A DNA stretch of 64,000 nt from Phoronis australis (lineage: Eukaryota; Animalia; Phoronida). The stretch lies in NCBI GenBank assembly GCA_002633005.1, contig NMRA01000826.1, positions 62,001 through 126,000 on the forward strand, given 5' to 3'. Both the position numbers and the translations under genes were made by a program. Below are positions 1,970 to 27,091 of the stretch, piece by piece. Numbering within the stretch: position 1 is the first letter of the stretch; every line of letters starts with the position of its first letter. The notes below the pieces were generated by a model, which saw only the letters and a program-made list of their open reading frames with translations, ran no database searches and had not been told where the DNA came from.

Positions 1970-2198
1970 GCTGCAAGCTGCTTTGTCACAGTGTGTTAAA
2001 GCTAAGAAATCTCTTCTCAGAAAGGAACAGATTGAGACCAAATGTAAGTGCTCTAAGTTAAATATTTGCTTGTTGGATGGCATGTTTATATAGTGGTTTT
2101 AAACTTGAAGGTTCACAAGATTATTGTGAGGTAGCTCACTTTTGACAATCAAACAAAGCTTTCATTCTGTATGATCATGGTGTTATCATTTAATCAAG

Positions 2199-2322
2199 GT
2201 GGGTGTTGTCTGAAGCCAAGAAGGATGAAACAGATGAAGACATTGCCAAGTATGATGGCAAGTGGTCGGTGGAGGAGCCACAGGATAACCCTATGGATGG
2301 TGATCTGGGGCTGGTTTTAAAG
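2199..2322 (+). CDS. CANX: Calnexin exon [41 protein letters not shown]
   Basis: caag| acceptor, |gtag donor; matches the start of the calnexin lectin domain. Confidence 0.93.
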
Positions 2323-5300
2323 GTAGTTTTATTCTTGATCAACGTTAGCTTGTTTGTTTGTGACTAATACTCCAGTTAAGATGAGTCTACCTTATGGCGA
2401 GCTCTATTTGATAGCAAAAAAACGAGGTGGTGCTCGAGTGAACTGAAGCTTACAATATCAATAACAGCACAGGGTGCTCAGCGAAGTCAGCTATGAAAAT
2501 CACCGACTAGCTGAGCCACATCTGCTGTGTTGGGGAAAGTAGATCCAGAACCCCTAATATGTAATTCCTTGAATTTAGGATGGCCAACATTGCCAATTTC
2601 TAGAATTGTAGAATTTTTACCGCAGAAGTTTCAAGGAAGTTGTGTTTTTCGTGGAATTGAGGGTAATATAGCATGGAATATAATTTTGATTGCTGCAAAT
2701 ATGTGCTAAATTTAAACCATTGAGGAGTTAATGAGCCCGGAAAATATTGGACTGAATAGGAAAATGTTTGAACATAGAATAGCAGTATTCTGTATGTGCA
2801 GTGTAATTACCAAGTTACGTGGATAGTGTCGATTTCAGTGTTCAACTGTTGGTCTGGCTGAATTAAAAAGTCTGCCTGAATTTCAGAAGGTCCCGGGGTC
2901 GAGTCCCATGTCGGTAATCTTTTTGAACTCTTGATATGTCCAAGCATCTACTTAATGCAAACTAAGTATTTGCTTGCGAAAAAACAATTTAATGATTCTT
3001 TCAGTCCAAAGCCCGCCATCATGCCATAGCTGCTCCCATGGATAGGCCATATGACTTCTCAGGGAATCCTCTGATTGTGCAGTAAGTAGTTGACATTCTG
3101 TTGCTTACTAATAACAGTGACTAGTAAAAGTATGCTTGGCAGATTACAAACGTGTGGGTCTTTAATTGTTGGAACCTGGTTGAGAAAAGGTATGATTGAT
3201 TTTACACAGCACACAATTCTAAACACTTTAATTATCTCTTACAGTTACATTCAATGATTGTCTTTATTTACCATTTTCTGGTTCCAGTTTTTTGGATATG
3301 ACTGCAGTGGAACTCCTGCTGAGCCCCACCTGGCTCTGTTTTGTAAAATGTTCTGAGTTCGAGGCCTAATCAGGGCAGCATTTTTTTCAAACTTGTAATT
3401 ACAGATCTTGGAATTGTCGTCTTTTGGTTTCGATTTCCTCTTATTTGATTTCCAGTTTCCTCTTTTCTCGTCCTTTTTTATCATTAGTTTGACTTTATTC
3501 CTGCTAAAATGTATATTTCAGTTAAATTTTACAACACAAATTGTTTCTATCACTCAAGCCTGTTTGTTGTGGAATGATACCTCATTTTGCCTCTTGTTTG
3601 TCATTGGTCATTCCAAGCTTTGTAATTGCTAGGCAATATAATGTGACCTTGTATGACTAGGCTACCTGCTCTATACATGTATTTTCGTTGTCCGTGATTA
3701 TTGTCAAAAGTTTGTCCGATTTTAGTAGAACCTGACTGGAGTGCTTGTGGCAGTTATGTGCTGTTCATCCGGTCATTTTTCCAATGTTGACTCTATTTTT
3801 GCAAAAAAGTCCATCAATTTTTGGTGCAAAGCCATGTGGTAGGAATTTGCCGGCAACAGTTGATTTTTGGTTGGATTGATTATCATGGCACCCGGTAGCA
3901 GTTTCAGTGTTTGCAGTAAATTCTTTGTCTGTTGATTTTCGCCGAAAAGATGACTTTTGGAAGCATTCGCTTTTTGAACGAAGTCAACCACCACATCATC
4001 ACCAGTGGGTATATGTTGCAATCAAGCCTTATTTTGTCTTGAATAATATGTATTGCATTTAGCTTATGACACAATGAAGGGCAGCTGACCAAAATTAATG
4101 TTAGTAACCAAAACAACAATGTTTGTGATTAGTGATAATGAGACTAGAATATTGTGAAAATTCAGATACCAACTATGCATTCATGCGTTTGTTTAAACTG
4201 AAATGCAGTTAGCCATTTAGACCTAGCTTTGATATCATAGTAGCCAAATAAGCGTTCTTATGTTTACATGATACTTATAAACAGCCTCAAGTGGACCATT
4301 TCAGTATTCTCATTAATTCCTTCATGGAGTTTTTGCCCAAGCCCATCATGCAGTCTTGTGTTTTAATCATTGTTTGAACATAATTATGTAACAACACATG
4401 AGTGGCCATTCACCTCTTGTTTTAATCATTGTTTGAACATAATTATGTAACAACACATGAGTGGCCATTCACCTTTTGTTTTAATCATTGTTTGAACATA
4501 ATTATGTAACAACACATGAGTGGCTATTCACCTTTTGTTTTAATCATTGTTTGAACATAATTATGTAACAACACATGAGTGGCCATTTACATTTTGTTTT
4601 AAACATTGTTTGAACATAATTATGTAACAACACATGAGTGGCCATTCACCTCTTGTTTTAATCATTGTTTGAACATAATTATGTAACAACACATGGGTGG
4701 CTATTCACCTTTTGTTTTAATCATTGTTTGAACATAATTATGTAACAACACATGAGTGGCCATTCACCTTTTGTTTTACTCAGCAACACAGCTCATCGCA
4801 TACCTCTGGCAAAATAAATTCCGATAATTTTAACTCGTTAAAATCTATTGATTTTGATGGTTTTTCTCTATGCCATTTCAGTTTATAATCACTGCCATAG
4901 GGATCATTTCTACTTATAGCCACCATGTATTGTACTACTTTTATGTTCACACACCTCCCTATTAGTGTTCTCATTGGTCAGTTAGTCCACCTTTCTGCAA
5001 GTACAGTGTGTGGCCTATCTCATTCAACCATCTCCATCACTCATTCAAGTTGTGTTATATTTGTCAACATTTTTCCCCACCCACCATCCCGTCATTTACC
5101 CCTCTCCAATTTTAACCATTTTGTTACGCTTTTCATGTGTTTTGGGTCATTACTTCTTATTCCGTCTTACTCTGGGTTCTTTTACGCACACGCCCTAAAC
5201 GATTTTCCTTATGCCTATCTTGCAGTTTTTTGTGTGTTCATTGTCTGTACATACATCATAATACATATCAACATGGTTCAATGATCCACTTCTTATTTTA

Positions 5301-8300
5301 CATTGCAACATGGCTTGTTGCATACTCCAGACAAAATAGATTCCAATAACTAATGTAACGTGATACTTACAAACAGCCCTAGATTTATATGGTTTGTAGT
5401 GCAGTCGTGGGCGTATTTCATCTCTTTGTATAGATCTTGTGACATGAGTTGCTGTGAGAGGTAAATCTGAGCCTTGGTGTCATCTTGTGTTGCAGGTATG
5501 AAGTCAAGTTCCAGAGTGGTATGGACTGTGGGGGCTCTTACGTCAAGTTGCTGCAGCAAGACCCTGGCCTAGACTTGGTATGTACAACCCCATAACATCC
5601 ACAGGCATAAACATTTACCACTAATCTTGCAAACTTTCTTTATTGATTATATTCACTACACAAGTATGTGTACATTTTTCTTTAAGGTCTTTTACTTTAG
5701 CTCCCAATACCGTGTTTGTAAATAACAAACAATTCCACCAAAGTCTTGACAGCTGAGGTTTTTGTCTGAGAGGTCTTGAAAGAAAATCAAACTCTAGCTT
5801 TCTTACTTAAAGTGTTCCATCAAAGAATGAGACGAACTATCACTCTATCACTATAAAGAATGTCTCAAATTATTCCTGACTCAGCAAAGATTAAGACCAT
5901 GACAGTGTGTGCCCTTAATCAAAAGTTGGTTTTTGTTGAGGAAGGCTGGTTAACTATTACTTCAACAGAACAAATAAACAGAATTTGCAAGTTTTGTACA
6001 AGAATTTTCATGCCTGAAAGTTATGATGATCTTAAAAAAACAGTTTTTGTCTCTAAAAACGTTTGGACATTATTTCAGAGAGCATAGTGTTGTTGCTGGG
6101 CTCATTATGGATTTTAAAATATTTTTGATGGGACCAAGCTCAGTGTTTTGAAAAATGTGCCTCTTGACGTTTGGTTTCATAGGCTGTTATTTACCTTGAG
6201 CGGTTTATTTGGGTTTGGCTGCCAGTATTTGAAAATCTGTACAATACCGATACTGTGTGGTCCTTTAACCACGGGAGTGTCATCTGCATATTTTGATAGG
6301 GTGCGCCTCTGGGAAATTGGGATATTGAGCCTTTTAGAGAGTGGTTTACTGACTGTGAGCTGCACAGTTTGTTTCCCATCTTGTTTGATTGAATTGAGAA
6401 ATAAAGCAAGAAATCCTAAATGAGTCACACAGCTCTAAATGTAATGATTTTGGCACAGCACTTTTCATGTTGATACCATACTAGCATTTTTCATTATAGT
6501 ATTTGGTACATCACCGGCACTTCTAAAATATGTCCAACTACTAGACTTTACCGGGATTCACCCATGCATAAAAGTAGTCATCGGGGAATATTGTTAATAT
6601 GGCTAAAATACCACAGAATACCTGTCATCAATTTAGTGTTGCAGTTTTGAAGATATTCACTAGGTGGTGTACTGTTGGGAATGATCTCTTGAATAAAGTG
6701 AGAACAGAAAACTGTTCCTCTGCATTTGTGTCAGTCCAACTTGTTTCAATACCACCACCTAGTAATCTCATTTTGACAAGAATCATGCAATGCAAGTTTA
6801 CTTCCTTTACCAGCTCTGAATCTCTCAGCCACAGTAAATTTCCGCTTGTTTCCAGAAAAACTTTGTGGACAAGACACCTTTCACCATCATGTTTGGACCT
6901 GACAAGTGTGGCACCGATGCTAAGCTTCACTTCATTTTCCAGCACAAAAACCCCAAGACAGGGAAATATGAGGTAAAAATGTGCTCTAGTCTGTGTGGAT
7001 GTGCTTTAAACATGGCTGTGGTAGTGTGTGTGTATTAGAACGGCTTTCTTGTACACTCTGCAAAGTACAGCTATATTAAATGTCCTTTTTCACAGCAGCT
7101 TATGGTTACTCTATTTGTTTGTGTTTGGACGGGGACAATATGTACTCACTGCTAATATATGTGTGCGTTTAGGCTCACATGCCTACATGTGAAGCTATGC
7201 CTATATGTAATGTGAAGTGTGTATGCCTATATGTGAAGCTATGCCTATATCTGAAGTGAGGTGCTTCTGCCAACATGCTATAACTGTATCAGAAGTGAGG
7301 TACCTGTGACTACACGTGAACCTATGGCTATATCAGAAATGAGGTGCGTGGGCCTACATGTTTAGCTATGTCTATATCTGAAGTGAGATGTGTGTGCCTT
7401 TACGTGAAGCTGTGCTTATATCTAAGGCTAAGTGCTTGTGCCTTCATGTGAAGCTCACTGACCACTTGCTCATCTTGTCCCTTGGTCAGGTGAGAAGTGA
7501 TTTTTGATCTTGACATGCAAAGAACGAATGGTTTGTTGTTACTCGAGATCATGCCCAGTGCATAGAATAACACACCCTGACATGTCAACTTGTAAAGCTC
7601 GTCCTTGAGCAATAAGAAACTGCCAATTCTTTCCAATCCCACAAATCACATCTGTTTTACTAAGGAACAATTTGAAATCAATTTCATAAAGGTCCGTGGT
7701 CTAAGCGGGTTAAGTTGGGTTAATAGCCGCTTTAATTTAATAAGTGTTTTCATTTAAAGTGTTTAATTCCCTGTCAAACATTGATTTAGACCATGAAGTT
7801 GTGTCATCACGTCCATACACACTTGTCACACTAATGGCTCTTTTTGACAGGAAAAACACGCCAAACCTCCGACCAAGAAGTTCAGTGAAGCGTTTGACGA
7901 TAAGAGGACTCACCTGTTTACACTCGTGTTATTTCCCGACAATAAGTTTGAGATCTATGTAGACCAGAACCTTGTTAACTCTGGCAGTCTGTTGGCAGAT
8001 TTCAGGTAGGCAGTACATTTGTAGTTCATAACATGAGGCGCCTTGAAGGCAGTTGGTTGTCATAATTGGACACAACTTGCTTCTTGCCTAGTTATGAATT
8101 ACAGGTTGTCTGAACATTGTGTGCACATTTCAAATCAAATGAACAACATTGTTTAATGACACAGGAATAAGATTATTGGTTTTTACGAGGTGACTAAAAG
8201 GAATTAAATCTTTCAACTAAATGTATCCTTTGAAAAATAATTTTCTGCATTTCGTCAACGTTTTTGAGTTTTTAGTACCTGTTACTACACACAGAAAATT

Positions 8301-11300
8301 TCTTTTCTCAAAAACTGAAATATTTGTTTATCATTCCAGCACATACAGAATATGTGACAGGTGTCACACGTACTCTTGCACCAAGTTGTAAACATGCAGG
8401 TGACCTGGTCACAGTGTACCTGGTCACACTGTACCTGGTCACAGTGTACCTGGTCACAGTGTACCTGGTCACAGTGTACCTGGTCACTGTACCTGGTCAC
8501 AGTGTACCTGGTCACTGTACCTGGTCACAGTGTCCTGGTCACAGTGTCCTGGTCACAGTGTACCTGGTCACTGTACCTGGTCACAGTGTACCTGGTCACA
8601 GTGTCCTGGTCACAGTGTCCTGGTCACAGTGTACCTGGTCACTGTACCTGGTCACAGTGTCCTGGTCACAGTGTCCTGGTCACAGTGTACCTGGTCACAG
8701 TGTCCTGGTCACAGTGTCCTGGTCACAGTGTACCTGGTCACAGAGTGTGATCCATGACAATACTGCATTGGAAGTACTTACACACTGTATTATAGAATAT
8801 GTATCCTCAAACACTTCAAATACCTATTTTGATGTGACATTTCATAAATATAGACATTGTTGTGACAATTTAAACAACAATGGATATCTGTTGCTTGGAG
8901 GTTTTGTGTTATGAAGACATTAGCTGCTAAGGTTGTTTAGGACCTTGATAAATGACTTCAACTCTTAAGTGAAATATCGAAAAAAAAACTCTGCTTTGTT
9001 AACCATTGAAAGTACATATTTTCTAAAAGGAAAAGGATTGAGTATTGTAAGGGCTGTTCCAGCAAAATCCGTATGGGTGGGGGAGGCCGTCAGCAGAAAT
9101 AAAAATTCATGGATGGTGGCCTTCAGAAAAAAGCTCAAATTATGGTGGTCGTTCTTGTAAGAAGTGAAGCATTAAAAGTGGGTGGTATTTTTGACCTGTA
9201 AATGTTGACAGGTTGGTATTACACATCTCAAAAGAAATCCAAACTCATCAAAAATTCACTTGGCTAATACCCTAACATGTCCAAAAAACAAATAACACCA
9301 TGTTGCCAGTGTACAGAGTGCAATATGTACACTAAGCCATTAATCAAGTCATGGGCAACTTGATTACAAGCACAAGTTTAACTGCAGTCATATTAGAATG
9401 AAAATGTCTGCAACACTAAATTGGTGTTAACACATATAAGAAAATTGATGATTTTAAAATAAAACGTATGAGGGGTACGATAGACAAGTTCCAATATTCA
9501 CCTGACATACCAGAATAAAAGAGCTCGTGGAGACAGTTTTAGATTCACAGATCCATGAAATTGAAAAAAACTTTATTGAAAGTACAGACACATGGTAACA
9601 GAGACACCTAGTGGCTGCCAAAAGCATTGCTCACAGGTGTCTTTGAAAAGCACATTTCTGGTAACTGATACGAGTTGTGATCTCACATGGAATTTTTCTG
9701 CACCCACAAAAACTTTGTGGTCGGTCCGTCTGTCATTATCCTTTCTTGTCCATCAATTATCTCAAGAACCGCTTGGTGGATCATGATGAAATTCGGTACA
9801 GAGGTACTTCGCAAGGATGCACCTGCACCAGTCGATTTTCCGGGCGGGTTTGGCAACTTTGGTATCCCATGTTGGCCGCTTTAGTTTTCGACAAGTCATT
9901 CCTTGCATGTTGATTATCTCTTCACTGATCACTGACAATGAAAGACGAAATAGAAGTATATCGCAAGAATGTGCTGGCACCAGTCAATTTTTGGATGCTG
10001 GATTCAACTACTGTGGCACAACTGGAAATTTGGCACAAAAATATGTAGCAGGGATGAATGCGTTGACAGAAGTCATTTTCGTTTTGATTTGACCACCCTC
10101 TTGGCTACTTTAGTTTTGACAATATTGGACAAGACAACTAGTTCTTGTCTGTCAACAGGTCATCCTGGAGGCAGTTTGTTTGCAAGTGTTGGATTTTATA
10201 TTTTAACCTATTAGTTAAAAAATTATGGGTCATGGGTTGGAGAAATAAATGAAAAATATGGGCGGTGGGTACAAAATAAAAGTGCCTTCTCCCCTCCCAT
10301 ACAGATTTTGCTGGAACAGCCCTAAAGTTATGCTTCTTATTACGGTGTCTTTATAATTGTCACGTGACCCCATTTTTTAAGTAAAATTTCCATGTGCAAG
10401 AAAGGTACATTCATAGCAAAATAACCCCCGGCTAATTATACTATAACTTTCTTGTATGAAAATTGACGTTGTGTCTCCAAAACACTGTTAAGAATTTTTT
10501 ATTGTTCACTTAGTTCGAGGTTTATGCCAAATTAAGTTGCAAAACACCCAAATTTTTTGTAAAAAAACAACAGCGATATTGTTCGGTACACATTTTAAAG
10601 GAAAATTCTTACAGCATTTCTGAGACATAACAAAGTTTTTTATAAAAAAAATTAGCAAAATCGATTGGAGGTTTATTTTGCTATGAATGTACCTTTGTTG
10701 CACATGAAAATTTAACTTGAAAAACGTGTTCATGTACTAGTAATAAAGACACAGTTGTAAGAAGCGTATTTTTAGAATCCTCGGTCTTTCTCCTTTCAGT
10801 AAGTACATACTTTTAATGGTTGACAAAGCATAGTTTTTTCGATATTTGACTTGGAGATGAGGTCATTTATTAAGATCTTAGATAATCTAAAAACAATTTG
10901 TTGACTAATTCCAGCCCAGCTGTCAACCCTCCTGCCGAGATTGAAGATCCCAATGATAAGAAGCCTGTTGACTGGGACGAGAGAGAGAAGTATGCAACTT
11001 AGCAACCCCTCCAGTCGATCAGCTGTCAAATTAGAACACCTGCAAACTATCTGACGATATGTTGATTAGCTGATATCGAGTTACCTCCATTTATCGATTG
11101 ATTCATACTACATAGAACTGGGACAATCAATTACAGCATTAGTCATCCTCCAATGTGTAAAGCATGAAAAGCTTTTCTTCTATTTTCTCATTTTTGGAAT
11201 GTTGAATACATGTGATATGCAGTGTTATTAAGGGAGATTTAATAATGCTGACAATTTAGTCACTTGTCAAAACAAGGTAAATGGTGATTTTAAGGTCTTT

Positions 11301-14300
11301 AATGGTTACAGTGATGAAGTTCTTGATATTTTAGCTGGAATGACTTCTTTTCCAGTCCTTAACAAAGACATGCAACATTTAATGCCCATAGCTGTATCTG
11401 ACATAAGCTAGAAGTTTAATGGGTTCTACATTATTACTGGCACAACCTCATTACCCTGTAAAGTTATGTGTTTCTCTTGCAGAATCCCCGACTCTGATGC
11501 AAAAAAGCCCGAGGACTGGTAGGTTATGTTAGGCTTGCCTGCATTTTCCTTAATGATAGTCTTTCTCAGAAATAACTGGGAGTTACTACCTGTCCTGTAC
11601 TCTACTGTCCTGGTGTATTTAGTGGGTACCTAAGCAGAGTTTGCCTTCCACTTCCAAACATGGACCCACCTTCCAAAAATATTGGGGTTCAATTTGGATA
11701 TCTTGGTGTTTGGAAGCAGTCCAGAAATCATGACACTAGAAAAGAGTGATGTCCAAATTGCATTTGGCAAACCAGGTGGTGGGTCTTTCTGTGCAGGGCA
11801 CTCAGTCACCTGAAGGATAGATGCTTTATCTTATGAAAGGAGGATTTTGTGGCATTTTTTTACTAAGGCTGTAATTTTCTTGATGTTTATTTACTGCACT
11901 GTTTTTTGTGACAATAATCCTTTATGCATTCACAAATAAGCAAGTATAAACTTGAAGGTAAATAATTAGAAGTGAATAATTGTTAAATTCTATGCTGTGT
12001 TATATCCTGTGTCACACATACTCCTTAACATTCACTGCTGTATATATCCAGTGTCATAGCATCTATATCCTGTCACAGTGACTGTGCTGTGTCACAGTGT
12101 CTATATCCTGTGTCACACAGTCTCATACTCCTTAACATTCACTGCTGTATTGATCCTGTGTCGCAGTGTTGATATGCTGTGTCACTCTACACATACAGCT
12201 ACATTAACTGTCCTTCTTCACAGCAGCTCGTGGCTAATGTTCGTGAGTCTGTGTTTGGACGGGGGAGACAAATTATGTCAGCCTCTGTGTGGAACTAATT
12301 CATACCTCTACCCCAGCGGTGTTATTTAGGATTGAAACGGATGACATCACAACTTAAGATTTCCCAAGTTTTTTTTAAATTTTTTTATCATATCAATTCT
12401 TTTTCACGACATCTTACATTGATTAGCTTCTTTCATCAATTAAAATAGGTTTTTCCTGTATGGTATAAAAGTTGAAGCAAAGCTGCATTTCTGTGTAGAA
12501 ATAAAAAATGGCCAGTGACTAACTTAGGGCTGTTCCAGTAACATCTGTATGGGAGGGGGGGAAGGCACCTATTTTTCGCACCCACCACCCATATTTTTCA
12601 TTTATTTCTTCAGCCTACCACCCGTAATTTTTTATAAGTTTGAAATGCAACCACCCGTAATTTTTTTTGTTCTTGTGGTTGACTGCACAGACGCTTGAGT
12701 TTATCTGTTCCTCCATCACCACTGATGTCATTCATTACTAAGAAAACACATGTTTCTTATATATGGTTATTAGCCATAGAGAAATTCGAGCACCTGTGGT
12801 TAAATGGTGTTATGGGCATGCCGATGAGGAGATCGGAGGGAGTGAAAAAGTTGCATTTTTGTTTCAGTTTTTGATTCTGTGCGGATTGTTTATAAAATTT
12901 ACTAAAATTACCCACCATCAAACATTTATGGCCCAATGAAAGAACAACGACCTGTGAATTTTTATTTTTTTGAAGTACGACCACCAGCCATTTTGAATTT
13001 AAATCAAACACAACCACCCATAAATTTTTATTTCAGTTGCCTTCGCCCCCCCCTCCCACACAGATTGTGCTGGAACAGCCCTTAGTAAAGTTATTAAATC
13101 CGTGACCAGTTACAAAAACTGCTTCTTTTCAGTTCCAAAGATGAGTAGGATTCCTGGTTCAGTTGTGTCTACTTCTCAATGGTATTTCATTCCATCCCTC
13201 TATGAGAAACGTAATGATTGTGTCGCCAGTCTCAAATTGTTTTGTGAGATGGTAGCCAGAGTTTAGTGACGGGTCACACACACGCGTTGAGACTACCTCT
13301 TCAACCAAACATAATAAAACGTGGTCGCGTGAGCCTCCCGGTCATTTTGCATTTTTTCCTCAATGCTTGCCTCCACCTTCTGCTGGTGATTGTCAAAGTT
13401 TATTTCAGGGACGAGACATTACCAGAAATGATTCCTGATGAGAGTGCTGTGAAGCCTGAAGGTTGGCTAGATGATGAGCCTGATTTGATCCCCGACCCGT
13501 CTTCAGAGAAACCATCTGATTGGTTAGTTCATCACTATTATACCACTGACGTCAGGCCTGAATAAGTTTAGTGCAGGATGGTACTAAAACCATTCAGAAC
13601 ATCATATCTGCCGTACTCGTCCGGATTACCACTCATGCTTGGCTAACCGTCCACCCCAAAATTTTCATTTTTAAGCGCCCATGCTCGGCTTACCACCCAC
13701 CCCCAATTTTTTATGATCGAAACCTTCTTAAAAGCGTGTGTGCTTTTGTGAATGTTCGTCTCGCAAAACTAAGATTTCAAAACGTGTGCAATTCGCTTAC
13801 TTTTCAATGACAATCAGTTTTAGCAGAACCGGGAACTTGCCTTACTATGGCGGTAAAATAACCATATTCTCATGCTCTACTAAAGTAGACACAATATTGT
13901 TTCCTTTGGCTCACGTGCAGAACTCGTGTCAGCATGTACTGAGACAGCTCTTGTCGAATGTATTTCATTGCCGTGGAAAAACCAACAAAGTGGTACTTGA
14001 CAAGAATTTCAAGTCCGTGGCCTACCTTTCTGGATAACCCTGACTGAACACGAAACATCACCTTGAGCAATGAAATATAAAAAAAAAACACGAGCACACT
14101 TGGATGATACATGACCATCGATTTTGGAAACTCCACCGGCAATATTTTGGATGCATCGTTTTGAATACAAGCCAATACGGGCCATATTTCCGTGTCTTCA
14201 TTATAATCACGTTTTTAATGGCTCATTCCTGAGACCAAAGTGGAAGCGCCCAACCAAAAGCAACGGTGCAAGAAATCAACTTAAGCGCTAGTCGAACATT

Positions 14301-17300
14301 CTATCCACATCTACGTGGTCAAAACTTATTTTTTTTTGAACTCCTGATTTGCTTGTTGACTTTTTGCGTGATGTGTTTTTGCTTTTTACATGCGTTTTTG
14401 CTTCATTATTTTCGCAGCCGACTGACCACCCCTATTGCCTAACAGTAGTACCGTCTGATTGTTGATCACGTGCTTTGAACAAATTCTGGGAGGTCGGTAT
14501 TGGCTGTTCAACACAGAAAGAAGTATACAATGCATATAAAATGTAACATTGTTCAAACTAGGTTCAAAGTATTTAGAAGAAAGACCGGCTGTCAATCATT
14601 AGCACGTGTGGTTGCCAAAGTAATTATCAGCAGCATATCTTTACAAAATCACCTGCTTCCAGAGCAGTACATGATGATCTCGCGTAGTCTTGCGTGATTT
14701 CGCTTTTCTCAAGAAACGTGCCCTACTGAAGGCACGTCTATCTGTAAGAATACCTCAGTTCCATGACATGACGAGCAGCGACCGAAGTACGTAAAAACCC
14801 AATTATGCTCGGGATCACAGCGCCACTGTATCCTGTGCGCTATTCCACTTCAGCCCGTCGAAGTCCATTACTTCAATCTGCCGACGTATATTTCAACTAA
14901 CGTGCTTGAAGTCCGGTATCAGTGTACCTCCGTGAGGGTAAAATCGGTCTTTTTTGCAGTAAGCACCCACTCCCGACTTTTCAAAAATGTCAATTTTGAC
15001 CGCCCATGCTTGGCTTACCGCCCATGCTTGGCTTACCGCCCACCCTGTTTTTTAGATTCCCACTTTAAGCGCCCTGGGCGATAACCCGAACGAGTGCGGT
15101 ATGTTCTTTAGTTTAACTTTTTGTGTTGGAAGGTTGATTGCATTAAATTCTAATATTTGTTTGACACTTGCCTGCCATACTGTGTCACAAGCAGAACCTG
15201 CGTTTTGGTTTTGCAAGTTTATTTCACCGAGACCTCTGTTGTCCTATTTACACTGTTAATGTATCTTGTAGGGACGATGACATGGACGGAGAGTGGGAAC
15301 CAGCCAAGATCTGTGAGTATTTTATTGGTGTTCTTGGGTTTGCTATGTTTTGAAAATCAAATATTTGTATGTGTACTTGTTGGCAGCATGGATACTACTG
15401 ATATGCTTCTGAAAGTCATGGAAATATTGAGGTATCTTGTATTAAAATACCTGTCCTTGATTTATGTGGCTCAAGACTGAATGCTATATGGTAATGCTAT
15501 ATGGTAATGATATATGGTAATGATATGTGGTGGTAATGCTATATGGTAATGCTATATGGTAATGATATGTGGTGGTAATGCTATATGGTAATGCTATATG
15601 GTAATGCTATTTTGTACTGTGTTTCAGCCAACCCCAAGTGTGAAGCTGCTCCTGGGTGTGGCGAATGGACACGACCTCAGATTAAGAACCCCCTGTACAA
15701 GGGCAAGTGGCGTCCACCTATGATTGCCAATCCCAACTACAAGGGTACATGGAAACCAAAATTGATCGCCAACCCAGACTTCTTCGAGGACAAGACACCA
15801 TACAAAATGACTCCCTTTGTAAGTAGTCCATTTTTAATACAAAACAAATTTTCCCTGTATTGTGTACTAGTCTGGTTATTGACTTCCTCCAGCACACCTA
15901 TCTTCTTTCGTTACAATCAGTAGCTATAGTTACTGGGTATCAGATTTTTACTTGTTACATTAGTTCTACTTATAGAACCTTGTTAACACTCATTTTTCTG
16001 CATTCCTTGAGAATGAGGCCTGCTTAATTCTAAGTTAGAGAACTGTTTCAGTGGTTAAATGGAAGTGCATGTGAAGTCAGAGGCGACAACATTTGCTCAT
16101 TTGCATATTGTCCATTAATTTTCAAATTAAATTGGCCAAAGTTTGACAGAGAACTTTGTCAGACTCTGCCAATCTTGCACGAACTTGTTGTTATAGTTAT
16201 TTGGCAATTTACTCAAATCTGTCGTAATAAAATAGTGTTTTTGTTGAAATTTAGTCAGATATTAATGACAGAATATTTCGTGTAGCCACTAATTGTTATT
16301 TGTGAGTTGACCTGCAAAGTTGAGTAATTTTGACAATCTGCATGGAGTGACACCTGTTGAGATTTTGTGGAGATTTAGCGAGAATTGGAGTGGGTTGTAT
16401 TGAAAACGAAATGGAGTCATGGTTTTGTGTATGAATTTAGACATTGTCCAGTGTACTTTGGCTCAATTGGTATTTTATTTTTTAATGAATGTTACATAGC
16501 AGCCTAGATTTTATAGGATTTCAAAAATGAAAATCGTGAAAGTTATAGATGATTTATTTGCTCCCCTGTCAGGTGGCTATTGGTCTTGAACTGTGGTCCA
16601 TGTCTGACAACATCCTCTTCGACAACTTCATCATCACTGATGACAAGGCAGTTGCAGACAGTTGGGCTGGTAAAACATGGCTACTCAAGAATCGCTACGA
16701 GACGGCTAAGGCTGCATCCAGTGGCAAGGTACATTTGACCTCGTAGTAACTGCTGTGTAACTTGTTTTGATCATGTATTCAACAAGGTGGTCACAATTTA
16801 AATAAGAATTTCCTGCCCAGTGTCGCTGTGGTAGATCTAATGTCCCAGGCAGTGCACAGTTTGTGTGATGGATGTGAATCCAGGCTTTGGTGAAATTGTA
16901 CCTGGCTGATAGCACTGTCTCCAGCAGAAATTGTTTCATTCGAACTTGGACTGGTTCCGTTTTCATACGTGCACATGACTTTGTATAAATATGTGTGCAT
17001 ATTGCTATCTTGACGTTCTACATATTGGTCGTAATTGACTATCACCCTGCAGTATCGAGATCCATTTTTAACTACAGTGAGGGGGGCAAGTTTATCGAAC
17101 TTAATACTAAAATCAACAGCATGCACACAAGTTGTGTTACCATTTTCTTTGTTTTCAAATGTTAGCAATGCCATCCTCACTTAATGATGATCACGAAGAC
17201 ACTCACCAGGTGGTGCTAATGTGTGATGTATACACTGTAACAGTAAAGCATAACAGTTGTGACAGGTGTGCATGTTTTATGAGGAAAACAGTGAACCTTT

Positions 17301-20300
17301 CATGTAACACTTCACTAAATTAAATGCAATAAGTAACCAAGAAAGTTTATTTTTAAAAGTTGTTTTAATTTAACTGGCGTTAATTGAACTTGATGATTAA
17401 TATATCACGAATTAGTATGAGCGCCTAACACAATGTGTGAAACTTATTTCAACTCAACTTCGGCATGTGTGAAGTGTGGGTCACCAAATAACAGTGGGCA
17501 GTGTCACTTTCGACCTGTCGCACTTCAGCTTTCTTTGTCAAGATTGCTCATGAGCCAAAATAAAAATTTCTTCAATTTTAAATACAAACCATTATCGTAT
17601 ACACCATTGGTATAGTATTGGTCAGTGAACACAAACCATTATCGTATACAACATTGGTATAGTATTTGTCAGTGAATACAAGTAGTTAAAGTAAACTTAC
17701 CTAGCTGCAGCACTATCAGCATCAATGCTTGACCTCATTTCTCTTGTCATTCAGTAAACCATTCCTCCAGAATTCAGTGATTTTGTGTCATCAAAGTGCT
17801 TCCCAAGAACTAAACCTACGAGTTAAGTCCAAACTGCTTGAAGAATTATAAAGCCAGTCTTACACAAAACAGTTTTGTTCAGTGTTGGTTAGTGATGCTA
17901 TTTTATTCCAATTCAAAAATGTTGAATAATTTGTTTGCAAGACCACGTATGGCCCATAGGGTTGACTTGTGTCATTCAACTTGTGTGCATGATTGTGATT
18001 GTGATTATGCTGCAAAATGGGACTGCTGCAAAGTCCTTATTTTTGTATACTTAGGTTCAACAATTTTTTGGTATTCATTTAATTTTGGTCATAGAAATGA
18101 GTATTTTAAATTGAACCCTATGTCGACCTGAAACAAGCGCATGATTTCTCTGTCCATCAACTATCTTGTTGTCTAATTTTATGTACTTTCATTGTCATAT
18201 GAGTTGTTTGACAACAATCTGATTGTTTTCCAGCTGAATTTTTTCCAAAAACTGTATCACTGGACTAAAGAGAAGCCTTGGATGTGGGCTGTCATAATAC
18301 TGGCTATTGTGCTTCCCACTCTGCTCTTTATTGCGTTTTGCTGCATCAAAACGCCACATGGTAGAATCAAGGTAGTGCAGTGTTGTCATTATGCATGCTC
18401 ATCCCGGCCAGGTGACCTTCATGTCATCTGGAGAAGCTGGTGCTGGATAAATCCCTGCAATTTTCAAGGATGTGGTTGACACAGCTTTATGAACAATTGA
18501 GTAGTGTTCTTAGTGTCAACCTGCCCCTGTGTGTACAAATATTCAACAGAATTGTGTGAAGGTCACCGGGCCATACATGTCTTATTTCTGTTCACTTTGT
18601 TGTTGTTGCAAGCTAACGTTTGTCTTCATCAGGGTGGTATCAGTGGGTTCTTCAGCATGCTGCTAGACGCTGCCAATGACCGCCCGTGGCTGTATGCCAT
18701 CTACCTCGTCGTTGTACTCCTCCCTGTTGTCGTCCTCTCCATTTTTCTATGTCCGTCCAAGCCACAGATTCCAGAGGTAGACAGTTTTCTGTTAACATGA
18801 ATGTCTTTCAGCTATGCAGGATGTGATACGTGAGCTTTAGCCAAGTTTGAAGCAGTATGCAGTGTTGACTTACTCTATGTGTTAGTCCTGCCTGATAGGT
18901 TTACAGTGACACTTAAACATGTACTTGCATGCTTCTAACTATGCTAATGTACAGCAGGAACTAAACGACAATGCTATTTGAACAACTGTGCTAAATAAAG
19001 AGCAGTTGTATTCACTTGTAAATGTGAAAACAAAAAACTCTGCAAATAGGTGACCTTTGCACTTATGGGGCTCACATAGCCCGCATCATGCAGTGTTATT
19101 CCCCAACACCACGTCGCGATACTTATTGGATACAGTTGTGTGATTTACAGCGGATCATTATCGACACAAAACTCATTCTTAAAAACATTTGGCAATTTTC
19201 AACCTACTTCATATTCTCATCATCGCTATATGTTGTGTGTCTAACTAATTTGACCGAGCAAACACAGAGATATGGAATTAGTGTGCTAGTTCAACTTTAA
19301 CTTGTTACCATGTTTATGTACAGCCCACATGTACAGTGTAGTAGAACTCCAGTTAGGGAAAAATTAATAACTTTGCCCTAGACCAGAGCTTGTACTAAAT
19401 TTTAGAAATAGGCACTACTGACTGTCCCAAATTCAAGAGTCACCAGAAATACTTAAAAATTAACTGCTAAGTATGTTTTGTCGGACTGTCTTGATACAAA
19501 ACCCTATGTCTGAAATTTGAGAAATGTAACGACTGCGACAATCGCCCATCTTCAGAATCAAGGAAATTCAATCTCTGCCGGAACATTGGTGTCCCAAATT
19601 TTAGAAACTTTCCCAAATTGGAAAATTTGCACCAGTAATCAGTATCGTCTGTTACTCCTCGTAATTACTAGTGGAATTCTCCATCACAACTTTTGAGCGC
19701 AAACAGAATTCACGGTCATCGTTACCATCTTGGCGGGGAGCGACTGTTGAATTTTACTAGAGTTAAGATCTAATCAAGTGTAAACAAACATTGTGGCAGA
19801 TACAGCAAGGTGCAAACAAAGAAATACGATGCATACTTAAGTTGATCACACATGGTCACACTGCTACATGCTTGAGTGACCAGTTGTGCTTCAAAATTGT
19901 ATTGGGTGGCGTAGTTGAATATTAAGGTCTTCCTTTGGCTATGAAATGCACTGGCAGTTGTGTTAACATATGCATGTGTACATTATTCTTATGTGAATCT
20001 TGACGACAAACAATTCTATGCATGAAACTGTCATATAATCTAGGACTCCCTATCATTCACTGCTGTATGTATCCTGTGTCACAGTGACTATATGCTTTGT
20101 CATAGTGACTGTATCCCATATCACAGTGTCTGTATCCTGTGTCACACAGTCCCATACTCCTTAACATTCACTGCTGTATATATCCAGTGTCACAGTGTCT
20201 ATACCTGTCACGGTGACTATGTGCTGTGTCACACAGTCCCATACTCCTTAACATTCACTGCTGTATATATCTAGTGTCACAGTGTCTATACCTGTCACAG

Positions 20301-23300
20301 TGACTATGTGCTGTGTCACAGTGACTATATCCTGTGTCACACAGTCCCATACTCCTTAACATTCACTGCTGTATATATCCAGTGTCATAGCATCTATATC
20401 CTGTCACAATGACTATGTGCTGTGTCACAGTGTCTATATCCTGTGTCACACAGTCTCATACTCCTTAACATTCACTGCTGTATTGATCCTGTGTCGCAGT
20501 GTTGATATGCTGTGTCACTCTACACATACAGCTACATTAACTGTCCTTCTTCACAGCAGCTCGTGGCTAATGTTCGTGAGTCTGTGTTTGGACGGGGACA
20601 ACATATCCTTGTTAAGATAGTGGTTGTAAACTTAGTTGGATTACCATTATAATTTATTACAATATTCTGAATCTCGGTAACATTTTACAAGAACACCACG
20701 GTATGTTGTCTTGATCGTTTTAGCTATTGAGCTGAGCTGTGTAACCAATTGTATATTATTACACAATGTTAGGTTGCCTATTGCATGATGAACTCGCCAC
20801 GAACTTATTGTCTAGACATCTTCTTGTCCTAATCTCCCTGGATATCATTATCTCGTGTTTCTTAACCAATGCACACAATTTTTGTCAGGCTGAAGATGAT
20901 GCAGGTGAACGAAAGAAGACTGATGAAGCAACGGCAGACGATGCAATAGACGAAGAGGAGGAGGAGCCTGAACAAGAAAGTGATGAGGTAGCAGCGGGGG
21001 CGGGTGATGCGCCGGAGGTGGAACAAACCAAGAAGAAAGGCAAGAGTGCCTTAGATGCAGAGGTGAGTTAAGTGTCAGGCAGTGGCTTTATAAAGAGATG
21101 AGTCATTGGGAGGGGTGGGTGGATTGGTTTGTAGGGGAAGTGTGTAGGTTAAACGGACAGATGAGTTGCTGGGACAGGTTGGTTTGTAGGGGAAGTGTGT
21201 AGGTTAAACGGACAGATGAGTTGCTGGGACAGGTTGGTTTGTAGGGGAAGTGTGTAGGTTAAACGGACAGATGAGTTGCTGGGACAGGTTGGTTTGTAGG
21301 GGAAGTGTGTAGGTTAAACGGACAGATGAGTTGCTGGGACAGGTTGGGTGAAAGCGTGAGCAATTTGTGATTCGATGTTGTGCAAGGTCATAGCAGTGCT
21401 TTGTTGTATAACCTGCCGTGTGCACTACTTATTGTATTTGTTGTATAACCTGCTGTGTGCACTACTTACTGTATTTGTTGTATAACCTGACGTGTGCACT
21501 ACTTATTGTATTATTGCTCACTTGTACCCATCTCCAATACTGATTTAAATACTGAAAGCGATGCCACCAAAAGTGTGCCATTGCACTTAATCAATGCAAA
21601 CTGTTGGTCTAAACAACTCATTCCTTACTTATATAGATGAGATGTGATTTCTGAGTTAAGATTTGACATCTTGTTATTCATGGAGATCATGCTGGGCGTA
21701 TCAGATTACAAGCCAATATGTAGAGCCTGATCTCAAGTAATAACGAAATGTCATTTCTAAGGAGGTCTAAAATAACCTTCAATTTACTAAGGAACAATAT
21801 GAGACCAATATCACAATGATAAGCAGGGACTCATCTAGCGACCGTCATTGGATGCCACGGCAATGATGGCATGGCCAAGACAGAAAAGACGGCAAGACAA
21901 CCTTGGCGAAAATGACAGCTAAATGAAGAATTTTAGCATTTATGATCAATAAATTTTATTGAAACTCACAATCCATTGTTTTTAGTTTGATAAATATTCA
22001 GAAATAACTCGACATTAGAGACTATTGCTGTCTATTTCTACTATAAATGTCACAATGACTCGGCAAATACTGGCAGCCATGTTTTTTGGGGAATACCTTC
22101 CTGTTGTTTGTGATGTCAGGGTGACCTTATATGGAATTTCCAGCATGGCGAGTGGAGAAATATTGTATCCAGCGCTAACTAACCGTACATGGAACTTAAT
22201 GTTTGCCGTACCCCTAATGCTCGTTGCCGAAATAGGAGAACCTTTATGATGAAAAAAATGATACCTGTCGACTGACCTGCCGTACAAATGCCACGAGTGT
22301 CGTTGAACATGCAAACCAGATAAAACTGAGCGCCAACTTCCCTAATTTGTTTGCACTGTTCCGTTGCAACTCGAACGAATAGATGAAAAAATTAATACAA
22401 AATCTGCTCATGCCGAACGACATATATTGATGTGCGAGAACACAGTGCAAACTTGACAGTCACGAAAAAATGAAATGTTTCATCTAATGTTGGTTACCTG
22501 TCCAATGACTAACTTAGCATGTAAGTAAAAGCCTTGATTTGAAATACTTTTTGTGAAATTCCACGATTATTGGGCGATTCGAGTTTGCTCTGTGTGTGGC
22601 ACTGCTGTATATGGAAAACGGTCACCCAGTCACATTCACAACACCTGTTACTTCGGCTGTGAAGCAGGCCGCGATTTGGGTCTTAAAACTGCAAGAAAAT
22701 AATGGTTCTTTTTAGGAATATATTTGTTGTAGCATAGTATGAAAAAGTGGTTGATTTTGGGCCTGGTAAGTGTCAACAAAGCATCCATTTACAATCCACT
22801 GCAGAAGACGCTAAAAACCACAATGTCCCCGGCAACCACTGGCGGCACTTGTAGCCAAACTCTAGGCGACTCCAAATTTTGCGATTAAAACACTCGGAAA
22901 AACGATTGGAAAACGTCAAAATATGAGCACCTAATTCAAACACAGTTCTGACATGTTTTTTTTTTGTCATCATCTTACACGAGGCCAAGTCTGGGTACCG
23001 AAGCGCAGGTGTAAATATGCCGTCACTCCTATTTTCGAGCGGAGATTTTTGCTTGTGTTGAGTGCCGGTGGGCCTGAGTTGTGAATTTCTTGAGGATATG
23101 TGTCCACATTTTCACAAATTTAATTTGGACCCCAACTTTTCAAATCGTAGATGAGTGCCTGATGATAAGTGAACTAAATCAAAGGTGGATTTTTATAACA
23201 ACAAACACTTAAAGTTCTTGTTCATGTTTACAAATGATCAATTAATTAGTTAATTGATGTTGATTGATTTTAAGGAGGAAGAAGAGGAGAATGAAGGTGA

Positions 23301-23367
23301 AGGAGAGATTGACGAGGAGGTCACACGGAGGTCATCACCAAGGAAGAGGAAACAAAGGAAGGATTAG
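2199..23367 (+). CDS. CANX: Calnexin gene (5'-partial; 15 coding exons in window, including two alternative TM exons)
   Basis: GT-AG exons join in phase. They encode calnexin motifs: [30 protein letters not shown]-domain repeats ([17 protein letters not shown]), IGLELWSM, a TM segment and an acidic tail ending [10 protein letters not shown]. Signal-peptide exon(s) were not found in the window. Confidence 0.97.
3005..3081 (+). CDS. CANX: Calnexin exon [26 protein letters not shown]
   Basis: ttcag| acceptor, |gtaagt donor; phase 0-2. Confidence 0.95.
4361..4778. repeat. 59-bp tandem repeat x7 with palindromic core
   Basis: Period 59 (4361, 4420, ...); each unit contains ACATAATTATGT. Confidence 0.95.
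5496..5577 (+). CDS. CANX: Calnexin exon [27 protein letters not shown]
   Basis: tgcag| acceptor, |gtatgt donor; calreticulin/calnexin family CGGxYVKL signature. Confidence 0.96.
6856..6972 (+). CDS. CANX: Calnexin exon [39 protein letters not shown]
   Basis: tccag| acceptor, |gtaaaa donor; IMFGPDKCG signature. Confidence 0.96.
7178..7455. repeat. Degenerate ~39-bp tandem repeat
   Basis: Recurring gcctacatgtgaagctatgcctatatctgaagtgagg-like units. Confidence 0.7.
7851..8005 (+). CDS. CANX: Calnexin exon EKHAKPP...[32 protein letters not shown]
   Basis: gacag| acceptor, |gtaggc donor; phase 0-2. Confidence 0.95.
8404..8743. repeat. 13/15-bp minisatellite (cctggtcacagtgta)
   Basis: More than 20 near-perfect units; source of the spurious ORFs at 8285-8914. 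Confidence 0.97.
9051..10322. mobile_element. PIF/Harbinger-type MITE
   Basis: TIR GGGCTGTTCCAGCAAAATC.GTATGGG at both ends; TAA target duplication. Confidence 0.88.
10322..10775. mobile_element. Foldback-like MITE with long inverted arms (related fragment near 52890-53150)
   Basis: ctaaagttatgcttctta...tgtctttat pairs with ataaagacac...aagaagcgtatttttag; internal aggtacattcatagcaaaataa is inverted near 10673-10695. Confidence 0.7.
10915..10989 (+). CDS. CANX: Calnexin exon [24 protein letters not shown] (P-domain)
   Basis: tccag| acceptor, |gtatgc donor; type-1 P repeat. Confidence 0.95.
11483..11518 (+). CDS. CANX: Calnexin 36-nt exon [11 protein letters not shown]
   Basis: tgcag| acceptor, |gtaggt donor; phase 2-2 P repeat. 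Confidence 0.93.
11995..12268. repeat. Dispersed satellite-like repeat, near-identical to 20330-20600; its tail also occurs at 7068-7140
   Basis: Shared catactccttaacattcactgctg units and terminal cacagcagctcgtggctaatgttcgtgagtctgtgtttggacgggg. Confidence 0.85.
12527..13081. mobile_element. PIF/Harbinger-type MITE (second subfamily)
   Basis: GGGCTGTTCCAG...CTGGAACAGCCC termini; TTA duplication. Confidence 0.9.
13409..13522 (+). CDS. CANX: Calnexin exon [37 protein letters not shown]
   Basis: ttcag| acceptor, |gttagt donor; P repeats. Confidence 0.95.
13611..15099. mobile_element. Non-autonomous Tc1/pogo-like DNA transposon
   Basis: Imperfect TIRs CCGTACTCGTCCGGATTA / TAACCCGAACGAGTGCGG, TA on the right flank, subterminal cgcccatgcttggctta repeats. 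Confidence 0.7.
15272..15312 (+). CDS. CANX: Calnexin exon [13 protein letters not shown]
   Basis: tgtag| acceptor, |gtgagt donor; P-domain tip. Confidence 0.94.
15481..15611. repeat. 13-bp minisatellite (atgctatatggta) abutting a splice acceptor
   Basis: About 9 units. Confidence 0.9.
15628..15818 (+). CDS. CANX: Calnexin exon [13 protein letters not shown]...[16 protein letters not shown]
   Basis: ttcag| acceptor, |gtaagt donor; type-2 P repeats. Confidence 0.96.
16573..16728 (+). CDS. CANX: Calnexin exon [22 protein letters not shown]...AASSGK
   Basis: gtcag| acceptor, |gtacat donor; phase 0-0. Confidence 0.95.
18234..18371 (+). CDS. CANX: Calnexin transmembrane exon A ([46 protein letters not shown])
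   Basis: tttccag| acceptor, AAG|gtagtg donor; 138 nt, phase 0-0; PWxW-TM-FCC pattern of the calnexin TM segment. Confidence 0.85.
18633..18776 (+). CDS. CANX: Calnexin transmembrane exon B ([48 protein letters not shown])
   Basis: gctaac branch point, catcag| acceptor, GAG|gtagac donor; 144 nt, phase 0-0; AA.(D/E)RPWL-TM pattern. Confidence 0.92.
20050..20600. repeat. Tandem/dispersed repeat (same family as 11995-12268)
   Basis: Repeated tgtgtcacacagtcccatactccttaacattcactgctg units. Confidence 0.88.
20889..21062 (+). CDS. CANX: Calnexin acidic cytosolic-tail exon ([12 protein letters not shown]...DAE)
   Basis: gtcag| acceptor, |gtgagt donor; KKTD motif. Confidence 0.93.
21124..21347. repeat. 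55-bp tandem repeat x4
   Basis: Identical ttggtttgtaggggaagtgtgtaggttaaacggacagatgagttgctgggacagg units. Confidence 0.95.
21401..21512. repeat. 37-bp tandem repeat x3
   Basis: ttgttgtataacctgccgtgtgcactacttattgtat units. Confidence 0.9.
21824..23161. mobile_element. hAT-family non-autonomous element
   Basis: TIR CAGG(G/C)ACTCATCTA; perfect 8-bp TSD ATGATAAG on both flanks. Confidence 0.92.
23275..23367 (+). CDS. CANX: Calnexin last coding exon [30 protein letters not shown]
   Basis: ttttaag| acceptor; SPR site and basic ER-retention tail as in vertebrate RSPRNRKPRRE; TAG at 23365-23367. Confidence 0.92.
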   Translation, partial: EEEEENEGEGEIDEEVTRRSSPRKRKQRKD

Positions 23368-25988: not shown

Positions 25989-27091
25989 AACAAGAGCAAC
26001 GCAGAGCGTTGAAATGCGCCCACAATTGCACCGCCAACGGTATCCTTCTAGGGTTGTTTATTGGTACCATAAAGTGGCCAGTAGAGGGCATATATGTAGT
26101 ATGTTGTACTTAGCAAAATGGAAAGGCATGGTCATTGTCTCCTCAATAGGCTAGGGGCAAAATGTGAGTAATCTTCATAATACAAGCACATCCTATACAC
26201 CAGTTGCTTAAAGCACCACAGAAACATAGAATTAAAAACAAATTTACCAACATACAAGATTAGCACAGCATTAGAATGCCAGAAACAAATTTCTACTTGG
26301 AACTTTTCCTTCACAGTCACGAAGTAACACAAAGTATACACCTGAAGACCTATGAAAATACAGAGGTCAATGTAAAATNNNNNNNNNNNNNNNNNNNNNN
26401 NNNNNNNNNNNNNNNNNNNNNNNNNNNNNNNNNNNNNNNNNNNNNNNNNNNNNNNNNNNNNNNNNNNNNNNNNNNNNNNNNNNNNNNNNNNNNNNNNNNN
26501 NNNNNNNNNNNNNNNNNNNNNNNNNNNNNNNNNNNNNNNNNNNNNNNNNNNNNNNNNNNNNNNNNNNNNNNNNNNNNNNNNNNNNNNNNNNNNNNNNNNN
26601 NNNNNNNNNNNNNNNNNNNNNNNNNNNNNNNNNNNNNNNNNNNNNNNNNNNNNNNNNNNNNNNNNNNNNNNNNNNNNNNNNNNNNNNNNNNNNNNNNNNN
26701 NNNNNNNNNNNNNNNNNNNNNNNNNNNNNNNNNNNNNNNNNNNNNNNNNNNNNNNNNNNNNNNNNNNNNNNNNNNNNNNNNNNNGTCATCTCACTAATAG
26801 GTGCCAACATACCAACTTTCATGAAAATTCGTTCAGGACTTTTGAAGATACAAAGGTAAGCGTAAAAAACTAAAATTGCCACTAGGGGGCACACCGGTAG
26901 TCGGATCCGTCCGAAAGTTCGCACATGCAGTCCCATTCATGAATGGAACATATGTGCCAAATTTCATGAACGTATGTCAAAGGGTTTTGGAGATAGAGCA
27001 GCGGACGCCGACCGGACGGACGGACAAACGGACGGACGGACAGAGATGACGGCATAATGCGTCCACATATAAATATGTGGGCGCATAAAAA
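25989..27091 (+). mobile_element. HINE/DINE-1-like (Helentron-associated) element spanning the N gap
   Basis: aacaagag + hairpin CAACGCagaGCGTTG + subTIR ATGCGCCCAC; other end has an (ACGG)n microsatellite and palindrome atgcgtccacatataaatatgtgggcgcat; A-rich flanks. Confidence 0.85.
26379..26784. other. Assembly gap (406 N); single-N joins also at 36524, 43424 and 45664
   Basis: Runs of n, all inside or at repeats. Confidence 0.99.

Follow-up and report, generated by a model that had tools for sequence, protein, structure and literature searches.

Two homologous membrane-anchor exons, found one per mRNA, in a calnexin gene of Phoronis australis

The window analysed here is a 64,000-nucleotide (nt) stretch of Phoronis australis DNA (contig NMRA01000826.1, positions 62,001 to 126,000), and all coordinates below are counted from its first letter. 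The first 23.4 kb of the window carry, on the + strand, a gene for calnexin, a chaperone of the endoplasmic reticulum (ER). Two neighbouring exons of this gene, exon A (18234–18371, + strand) and exon B (18633–18776, + strand), each encode a membrane anchor, and RNA reads show that the one gene gives rise to two mRNAs with one of these cassettes each. The two exons are very probably mutually exclusive, B being used in most transcripts and A in about 5–14% of them, which would give two type I calnexins, different only in 46–48 residues at and near the anchor.

RNA reads place a single anchor exon in each mRNA

Splicing was followed in three raw-read RNA runs that share the species label (X1, X2 and X3), about 18–19% of each of which was read. 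Reads were aligned once to the stretch 16450–21150 (min_share 1) and a second time to the stretch 18150–18850 (likeness 90); the threshold for listing a splice joint was 3 reads from 2 starts. A further run, X4 (Logan contigs, 2015), gave no match over 18150–18850. Read orientation was uniform, with the first mate on the - strand, which fits a stranded library and a gene on the + strand. Four joints, all of them GT..AG, were listed over 16450–21150. The constitutive exon that ends at 16728 is joined to exon A (16728>18234) by 4, 0 and 0 reads in X1, X2 and X3, respectively, and to exon B (16728>18633) by 53, 33 and 19 reads. The constitutive exon that starts at 20889 is reached from exon A (18371>20889) by 5, 8 and 0 reads, and from exon B (18776>20889) by 97, 50 and 20 reads. 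No other joint was listed in any of the three runs; neither the joint of A to B (18371>18633) nor the joint that skips both exons (16728>20889) reached the threshold. Mutually exclusive use of A and B had been proposed in a first-pass annotation of this DNA, which also predicted where the informative joints would fall. All four lie at exactly those coordinates, and the two forms share the flanking exons 16728 and 20889. The outcomes that had been named as contrary to the proposal, an exon A that is neither spliced nor conserved or an A that is constitutively included together with B, were not found in these runs, in which A joints are seen and the A–B joint is unlisted.

The loose ends of the aligned reads, that is, the letters that run past an exon edge, were also compared with the gene. 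At exon A they occur in 5, 5 and 9 reads, with an agreement of 1; behind A, the 5 in X1 and the 9 in X2 all read the start of the exon at 20889, and before exon B those in X1, X2 and X3 (53, 37 and 20 reads, agreement 1) read the end of the exon that closes at 16728. B is skipped by 14 of the 14 spliced reads that leave A, and the upstream exon is the origin of 110 of the 110 reads that enter B. Exon A is linked to both constitutive flanking exons in two of the three runs. Exon B is the major form; on the donor side, exon A accounts for about 5% in X1 and about 14% in X2, and in X3 it falls under the threshold for listing. Depth over exon A is about 6.7, 10–11 and 2 in X1, X2 and X3, and over exon B 60–105, 50–77 and 21–30. 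In X2, exon A is cleanly spliced, because the intron between A and B has a depth of 0 beside the 10–11 of the exon. Were the two exons included independently of each other, a weak A beside a strong B should yield mostly A–B joints, and none was listed.

One alternative is that transcripts normally contain both A and B, which would then form a two-helix hairpin anchor. Both exons are multiples of three, so that the frame would hold, and three database models do read through both cassettes: WAQ99047.1 of Mya arenaria, A0AAG5DH16 of Anopheles atroparvus and A0A182HPG0 of An. arabiensis. These stand against the lack of a listed 18371>18633 joint in three runs, the reads leaving A and entering B, every one of which is contrary (14/14 and 110/110), and the RefSeq models of Dreissena and of mosquitoes, which hold one cassette each. 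Regular co-inclusion is contradicted in these three samples and is extremely unlikely. The models that contain both cassettes, and a model of An. merus that skips both, are probably model errors, because the read evidence in the window shows one cassette each. It can reasonably be inferred, as had been pointed out earlier, that co-inclusion would flip the tail into the lumen and that a double skip would give a soluble form; neither form is among the listed joints.

A different explanation would assign the exon A reads to a second, nearly identical calnexin copy with an A-type anchor, the gene in the window making the B form only. In Dreissena, one chromosome-scale contig carries two calnexin-like loci, which favours this explanation. 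However, each of these two Dreissena loci has both forms, and the window itself holds both exons with their splice sites intact. Moreover, the letters beyond exon A match the window's own flanking exons with an agreement of 1, and over 18150–18850 likeness to the window is at least 99% for 164 of the 169 aligned reads in X1 and for 113 of the 117 in X2. A contribution from a second copy is thus very unlikely, and I retain the reading in which one gene uses its two anchor exons alternatively.

The two exons encode diverged versions of the same anchor

Exon A (138 nt, 46 codons) follows ...ttttccAG and precedes GTagtg, and exon B (144 nt, 48 codons) follows ...cttcatcAG and precedes GTagac. A pyrimidine tract and an AG precede both exons, and both translations are free of stops. 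The first-pass annotation had described two open and correctly bounded exons in phase 0–0, and the sequence is as described. The neighbouring constitutive exons have whole-codon boundaries at 16728 (end) and 20889 (start); because they meet at whole codons, the frame would be kept with A alone, with B alone, with both or with neither. The two exons have the features of a mutually exclusive pair: they are adjacent, homologous, similar in length, both in phase 0–0, and 261 nt apart.

Each cassette begins with about 17 juxtamembrane residues; a hydrophobic helix of 22 residues follows, and then about 8 more residues. In both of them the helix shows the hallmarks of calnexin: it opens with PW, has a proline halfway along and closes with a cysteine. 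The anchor of exon A is of the canonical type, KPWMW...LP...FIAFCC, with two adjacent cysteines; that of exon B, RPWLY...LLP...LSIFLCP, is of a type hereafter called B-type. Compared by BLASTP, A and B are identical at 11 of 41 positions (27%; E 2e-5 for a single comparison); the PW...LP pattern has been kept in sequences that are otherwise strongly diverged, in agreement with what was first noticed. A HMMER scan of 1.84 billion representatives with exon A alone yielded 53 proteins at E <= 0.001, 51 of which have the calnexin PW...LP...CC anchor segment and 2 of which are unrelated repetitive proteins. When the peptides of the two exons were compared with longer proteins in word-indexed searches, nothing scored, which is weak evidence.

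An A/B pair also occurs in molluscs

Among lophotrochozoan calnexins, as sampled by matches to the conserved P-domain exon and to exon A, two anchor types are found: a canonical one, ...RPWLWAV...LP...IAYCC, which resembles window A, and a second one, ...RPWLYAVYVVV.LLP.VLLSICLCP, which resembles window B. In Dreissena polymorpha, the proteins XP_052249549 (isoform X1, A-type) and XP_052249550 (isoform X2, B-type) have 26 differing columns, all in one block of 45 columns, and a second locus (XP_052250397/-398/-399) shows the same A/B pair. Gene family and cassette position, between ...TTG and KQEDL..., are those of the window, and the Dreissena A-type (...IAYCC) and B-type (...LSICLCP) resemble the two types of the window. 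There are also differences. The cassettes of the window have diverged much further: window B is identical to Dreissena B at 27 of 46 positions and window A to Dreissena A at 18 of 45. In place of the C-L-C of the molluscs, window B has a single cysteine. Furthermore, the Dreissena isoforms are database models only, whereas exclusive use in the window is shown directly by read joints. In Mya arenaria, the model WAQ99047.1 carries an A-type and then a B-type anchor in tandem, which is the order of the window, and there are models of Pomacea canaliculata with the B type. A scan of metagenome contigs with the B-type alignment found a single locus (L001, 33–1886), an intron-less, complete calnexin open reading frame of 617 codons with a B-type anchor alone; it is bivalve-like, with 75% identity to Dreissena over the columns that were compared, and represents a transcript-like, B-only form.

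In a tree of 37 anchor segments, window B, Dreissena isoform X2, Mya B, Pomacea and L001 form a B clade with support 100/99, and a tree in which window A and window B are held together is rejected (approximately unbiased test, p-AU 0.0087). The window B cassette is orthologous to the B-type of bivalves and a gastropod. Taken together, the B clade and the rejection of an A/B clade imply that the duplication predates the split of this organism from the bivalves and the gastropod; it is not a recent local event. The original suggestion of an old duplication kept by selection is supported by the orthology of B to the bivalve and gastropod cassettes and by the A-then-B order in Mya.

Exon A might nevertheless be a decaying relic that is included occasionally as splicing noise, only the B form being at work in this species. 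Decay would be in keeping with the low share of A (donor-side values of about 5% in X1 and 14% in X2, unlisted in X3), with its long terminal branch, with a luminal half that is unlike those of other A-type anchors (best identity, 21/39), and with the origin of part of the exon A coverage in X1 from molecules that retain the A–B intron. By contrast, noisy inclusion does not lead one to expect that both splice sites of A are used precisely and that B is skipped in 14/14 spliced A reads. Moreover, the frame of exon A is open, its PW, mid-helix P and terminal CC are kept, and both Dreissena and Mya retain an A/B pair, the A form being an annotated isoform. I therefore consider it unlikely that A is a relic, and hold to the view that A and B are two exclusive cassettes.

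Comparison with arthropods, vertebrates and Dscam1

Pancrustaceans have a similar arrangement: a gene has two annotated proteins, identical except for a juxtamembrane and transmembrane cassette at the same calnexin position. Such isoform pairs are found in Anopheles funestus (X1/X2), An. nili (X1/X2), Toxorhynchites rutilus (X1/X2), Drosophila ananassae (isoforms B/C) and Homarus americanus (XP_042207234 vs KAG7154634); the arthropod pairs are labelled P0056/P0185, P0075/P0190, P0082/P0200, P0088/P0196 and P0049/P0217. The likeness has its bounds: one of the cassettes is canonical, but the second one is aromatic-rich (KPGYWGAYFVYCSIPLIAYIWFLW), and in the pancrustacean read-through models the canonical cassette stands behind the divergent one, opposite to what is found in the window and in Mya. 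In the best tree, the aromatic-rich cassettes form their own clade (93/93), apart from the mollusc B type, while a joint clade of the two is not rejected (p-AU 0.275). Judging from the sequences, the arthropod pair is likely an independent duplication. That the swappable anchor is instead ancestral to protostome calnexin, from one ancient duplication common to molluscs, Phoronis and pancrustaceans and kept for more than half a billion years to serve different ER territories or partners, is doubtful; were it so, translocon-bound and contact-site pools, for example, might be set apart by different helix packing and acylation.

Vertebrate calnexin shares with cassette A the PW...LP...FCC anchor. 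It differs in having one constitutive transmembrane exon: every vertebrate match to the P-domain exon has a single canonical segment, and no alternative cassette was seen in these matches, beyond which vertebrate isoforms were not looked at. A parallel in organisation comes from an unrelated gene. In insects, Dscam1 exon 17 is described in PMC1397879 as two mutually exclusive transmembrane exons, tandem and homologous, which likewise put swappable anchors on an otherwise constant protein; Dscam1 is, however, a cell-surface receptor, and calnexin a chaperone of the ER.

The first-pass annotation was not aware of any account of such an anchor swap for calnexin. On the side of the published papers this still holds, since none was found that describes one, but the swap itself is already annotated in Dreissena, mosquitoes, Drosophila ananassae and the lobster. 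Among the papers listed by full-text searches directed at calnexin or Cnx99A, no description was found, with the supplements of mutually-exclusive-exon catalogues, which may list the fly gene, lying outside this coverage. Cnx99A appears only in the gene lists of PMC3852387, and in the bivalve and oyster literature a scallop calnexin paper (PMC9680081) is without the terms 'isoform', 'splic-' or 'exon'. The calnexin pair described here is real, RNA-validated and old, and the anchor-switch device as such is of a known kind, that of Dscam1 exon 17.

What may enforce exclusion

Exclusion of A and B is strict within the listing threshold, though none of three textbook mechanisms (steric hindrance, U2/U12 incompatibility and frame-dependent decay) applies, and the frame-neutral pair makes this a clean splicing question. 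Steric hindrance is ruled out by the A–B intron (18372–18632, + strand, GT..AG), which is 261 nt long and has a CTAAC at 18613–18617, about 244 nt from the A donor. This CTAAC near exon B is likely, from its sequence and position, the branch site, and an AG at 18611–18612 argues, on a reading by eye, against a distal branch point. Incompatibility between U2- and U12-type sites is ruled out as well, since each of the six sites is of the GT..AG kind and no donor is U12-type. Frame-dependent decay of A–B or null forms fails too: out-of-frame decay cannot hide these forms, because both exons are multiples of three. RNA pairing is described in PMC8042237 as a mechanism in Dscam clusters. A docking/selector arrangement was considered for the element 18554–18579, at the 3' arm of the hairpin described below, which has weaker partners of 12–14 nt at 17944–17955 and 19049–19062, and was set aside: there are 21 such pairs in 4 kb, which is chance level, the two upstream blocks are out of helix order, and the partner at 19049–19062 falls in a repeat.

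The A–B intron contains a strong hairpin with arms at 18406–18421 and 18557–18572 (+ strand), in which 15 of 16 positions are paired around a 135-nt loop. This hairpin is present in both the minimum free energy and the centroid folds, a repeat of its kind occurred in 0 of 300 dinucleotide shuffles of the intron, and its arms are not a multi-copy repeat within the window. The fold of the whole intron is unremarkable (z -1.14); the local hairpin alone is unusual. Reads cover the intron at a depth of 3–6 in X1, 0 in X2 and 1–2 in X3. In X1, this depth of 3–6 contrasts with a depth of 0 for the intron before A and for the first bases after B, a pattern that fits molecules in which A and B are both defined and the intermediate intron is unremoved. 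On retention of the A–B intron an in-frame stop is met at 18477–18479 (open reading frame 18177–18479), and intron-retaining molecules would therefore not make full calnexin. The hairpin and the intron-retaining reads together suggest that the A–B intron is hard to remove, having been made refractory.

The remainder of the calnexin gene

Calnexins of Owenia (an annelid) and Dreissena (a bivalve) align exon by exon along the gene in a tblastn comparison with the window. The upstream coding exons, for the luminal lectin and P domains, extend over 2197–15818 (+ strand; tblastn, translations and PF00262), with approximate in-frame pieces, all on the + strand, at 2197–2322, 2999–3079, 5494–5577, 6856–6975, 7851–8003, 10907–10990, 11484–11519, 13410–13523 and 15627–15818; this list is without the first exon and one small exon near 15250–15300, the boundaries of which were not delimited. 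PF00262 (Calreticulin family) matches with 98.7 bits at 15627–15818 and with 51.7 bits at 6856–6975, the cut-off being 25; the exon 16573–16728 reaches 20.4 bits, under that cut-off, over the last 20 profile positions. This constitutive pre-cassette exon (16573–16728, + strand) carries the end of the luminal domain, ...AKAASSGK, and ends in phase 0. Reads stop at 16573, where their loose letters match the end of exon 15627–15818. The luminal domain is 53–69% identical to calnexins of many phyla, over 335–377 aligned residues per comparison, with no close relative.

Behind the cassettes, a constitutive exon at 20889–21062 (+ strand), with joints from both A and B, encodes the acidic cytosolic tail. 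Its end had been placed at 21063 and is corrected here to 21062, the G at 21063 being common to the first base of the last exon (23274). That last coding exon (23274–23366, + strand, stop TAG at 23364–23366) was identified by its open reading frame and by a loose-end match: the loose end behind 21063 matches 23275 onward, the unique match of the letters being at 23284–23296. The protein has a single hydrophobic anchor after the luminal domain and then an acidic tail ending in a basic motif, an arrangement by which calnexin is distinguished from the soluble calreticulin.

In the post-cassette exon, all RNA reads of the three runs have T instead of C at 20944 and G instead of A at 20954 (first-mate-on-minus counts in X1, 147/147 and 136/136, respectively); rather than editing, this probably reflects fixed differences of the sequenced individuals from the assembly. 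The calnexin introns contain tandem repeats at 4355–4782 (59 nt x 7.3), 8403–8743 (15 nt x 24), 20045–20513 (a 21/109/195-nt array) and 21124–21347 (55 nt x 4.1, 100% identity), and translations suggest that the stretch 20360–20620 recurs at about 12060–12330, in another intron. RNA reads of either strand cover the intronic stretch 18934–19220; variant letters are numerous there, one gap of 1 base occurs, and both sides have loose ends. The stretch resembles a dispersed repeat that is transcribed elsewhere, outside the calnexin mRNA. A run of N, an assembly gap that gives X in all six frames, lies at about 26380–26785.

A proposed function for the anchor switch

The luminal lectin/chaperone domain and the acidic cytosolic tail would be common to both isoforms, while the linker, the helix and the cytosolic juxtamembrane residues would differ between them. 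Since domain and tail are constant, the switch likely changes only membrane-embedded and juxtamembrane properties, and the swap is thereby likely to change how calnexin sits in the ER membrane. According to PMC4765739, the helix of human calnexin ends with Cys502/Cys503, both of which are palmitoylated by DHHC6. There, what calnexin does at ER-mitochondria contacts and at the ribosome-translocon complex depends on palmitoylation, which also lengthens the half-life of the protein from 5 to 45 h. The cysteine motif is CC in cassette A, a single C followed by P in window B, and C-L-C-P in mollusc B; cassette B differs further in its luminal linker and in having a serine within the helix. The switch is accordingly predicted to tune acylation geometry, helix packing with partners or membrane clients, placement in ER sub-domains, choice of partners or turnover.

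Several points weigh against the model of two exclusive and functionally distinct anchors. Exon A is rare, with 4–9 junction reads per side in two runs and X3 below the threshold. An A–B or skip-both form present at 1–2 reads per run would escape listing, and the 0/14 among reads from the A donor bounds co-inclusion among spliced A transcripts only below about 20%. The three runs X1–X3 all come from one study, and no regulation by tissue is claimed. In the tree, the branch of window A is long (1.13), and support is lacking (89/41) for its position among the A-type anchors, next to P0125 and P0126; constraint on A has possibly been relaxed in this lineage. Finally, the part of the model that concerns palmitoylation and ER sub-domains would carry over to this organism what was learnt from mammalian work, and the contrast of two sites against one holds for the window only, given that mollusc B keeps two cysteines (C-L-C).

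In practical terms, the models of Mya arenaria, An. atroparvus, An. arabiensis and An. merus, being probably in error, can be corrected. Isoform pairs exist in RefSeq/GenBank for several species, yet they seem unstudied, and the anchor of calnexin is commonly regarded as a passive tether. The A/B pair is older than the bivalve-gastropod split and has been retained since then, and a parallel pair is present in arthropods, Drosophila species included. Two interchangeable anchors on an otherwise identical protein constitute a ready-made natural experiment on what the anchor of calnexin does.

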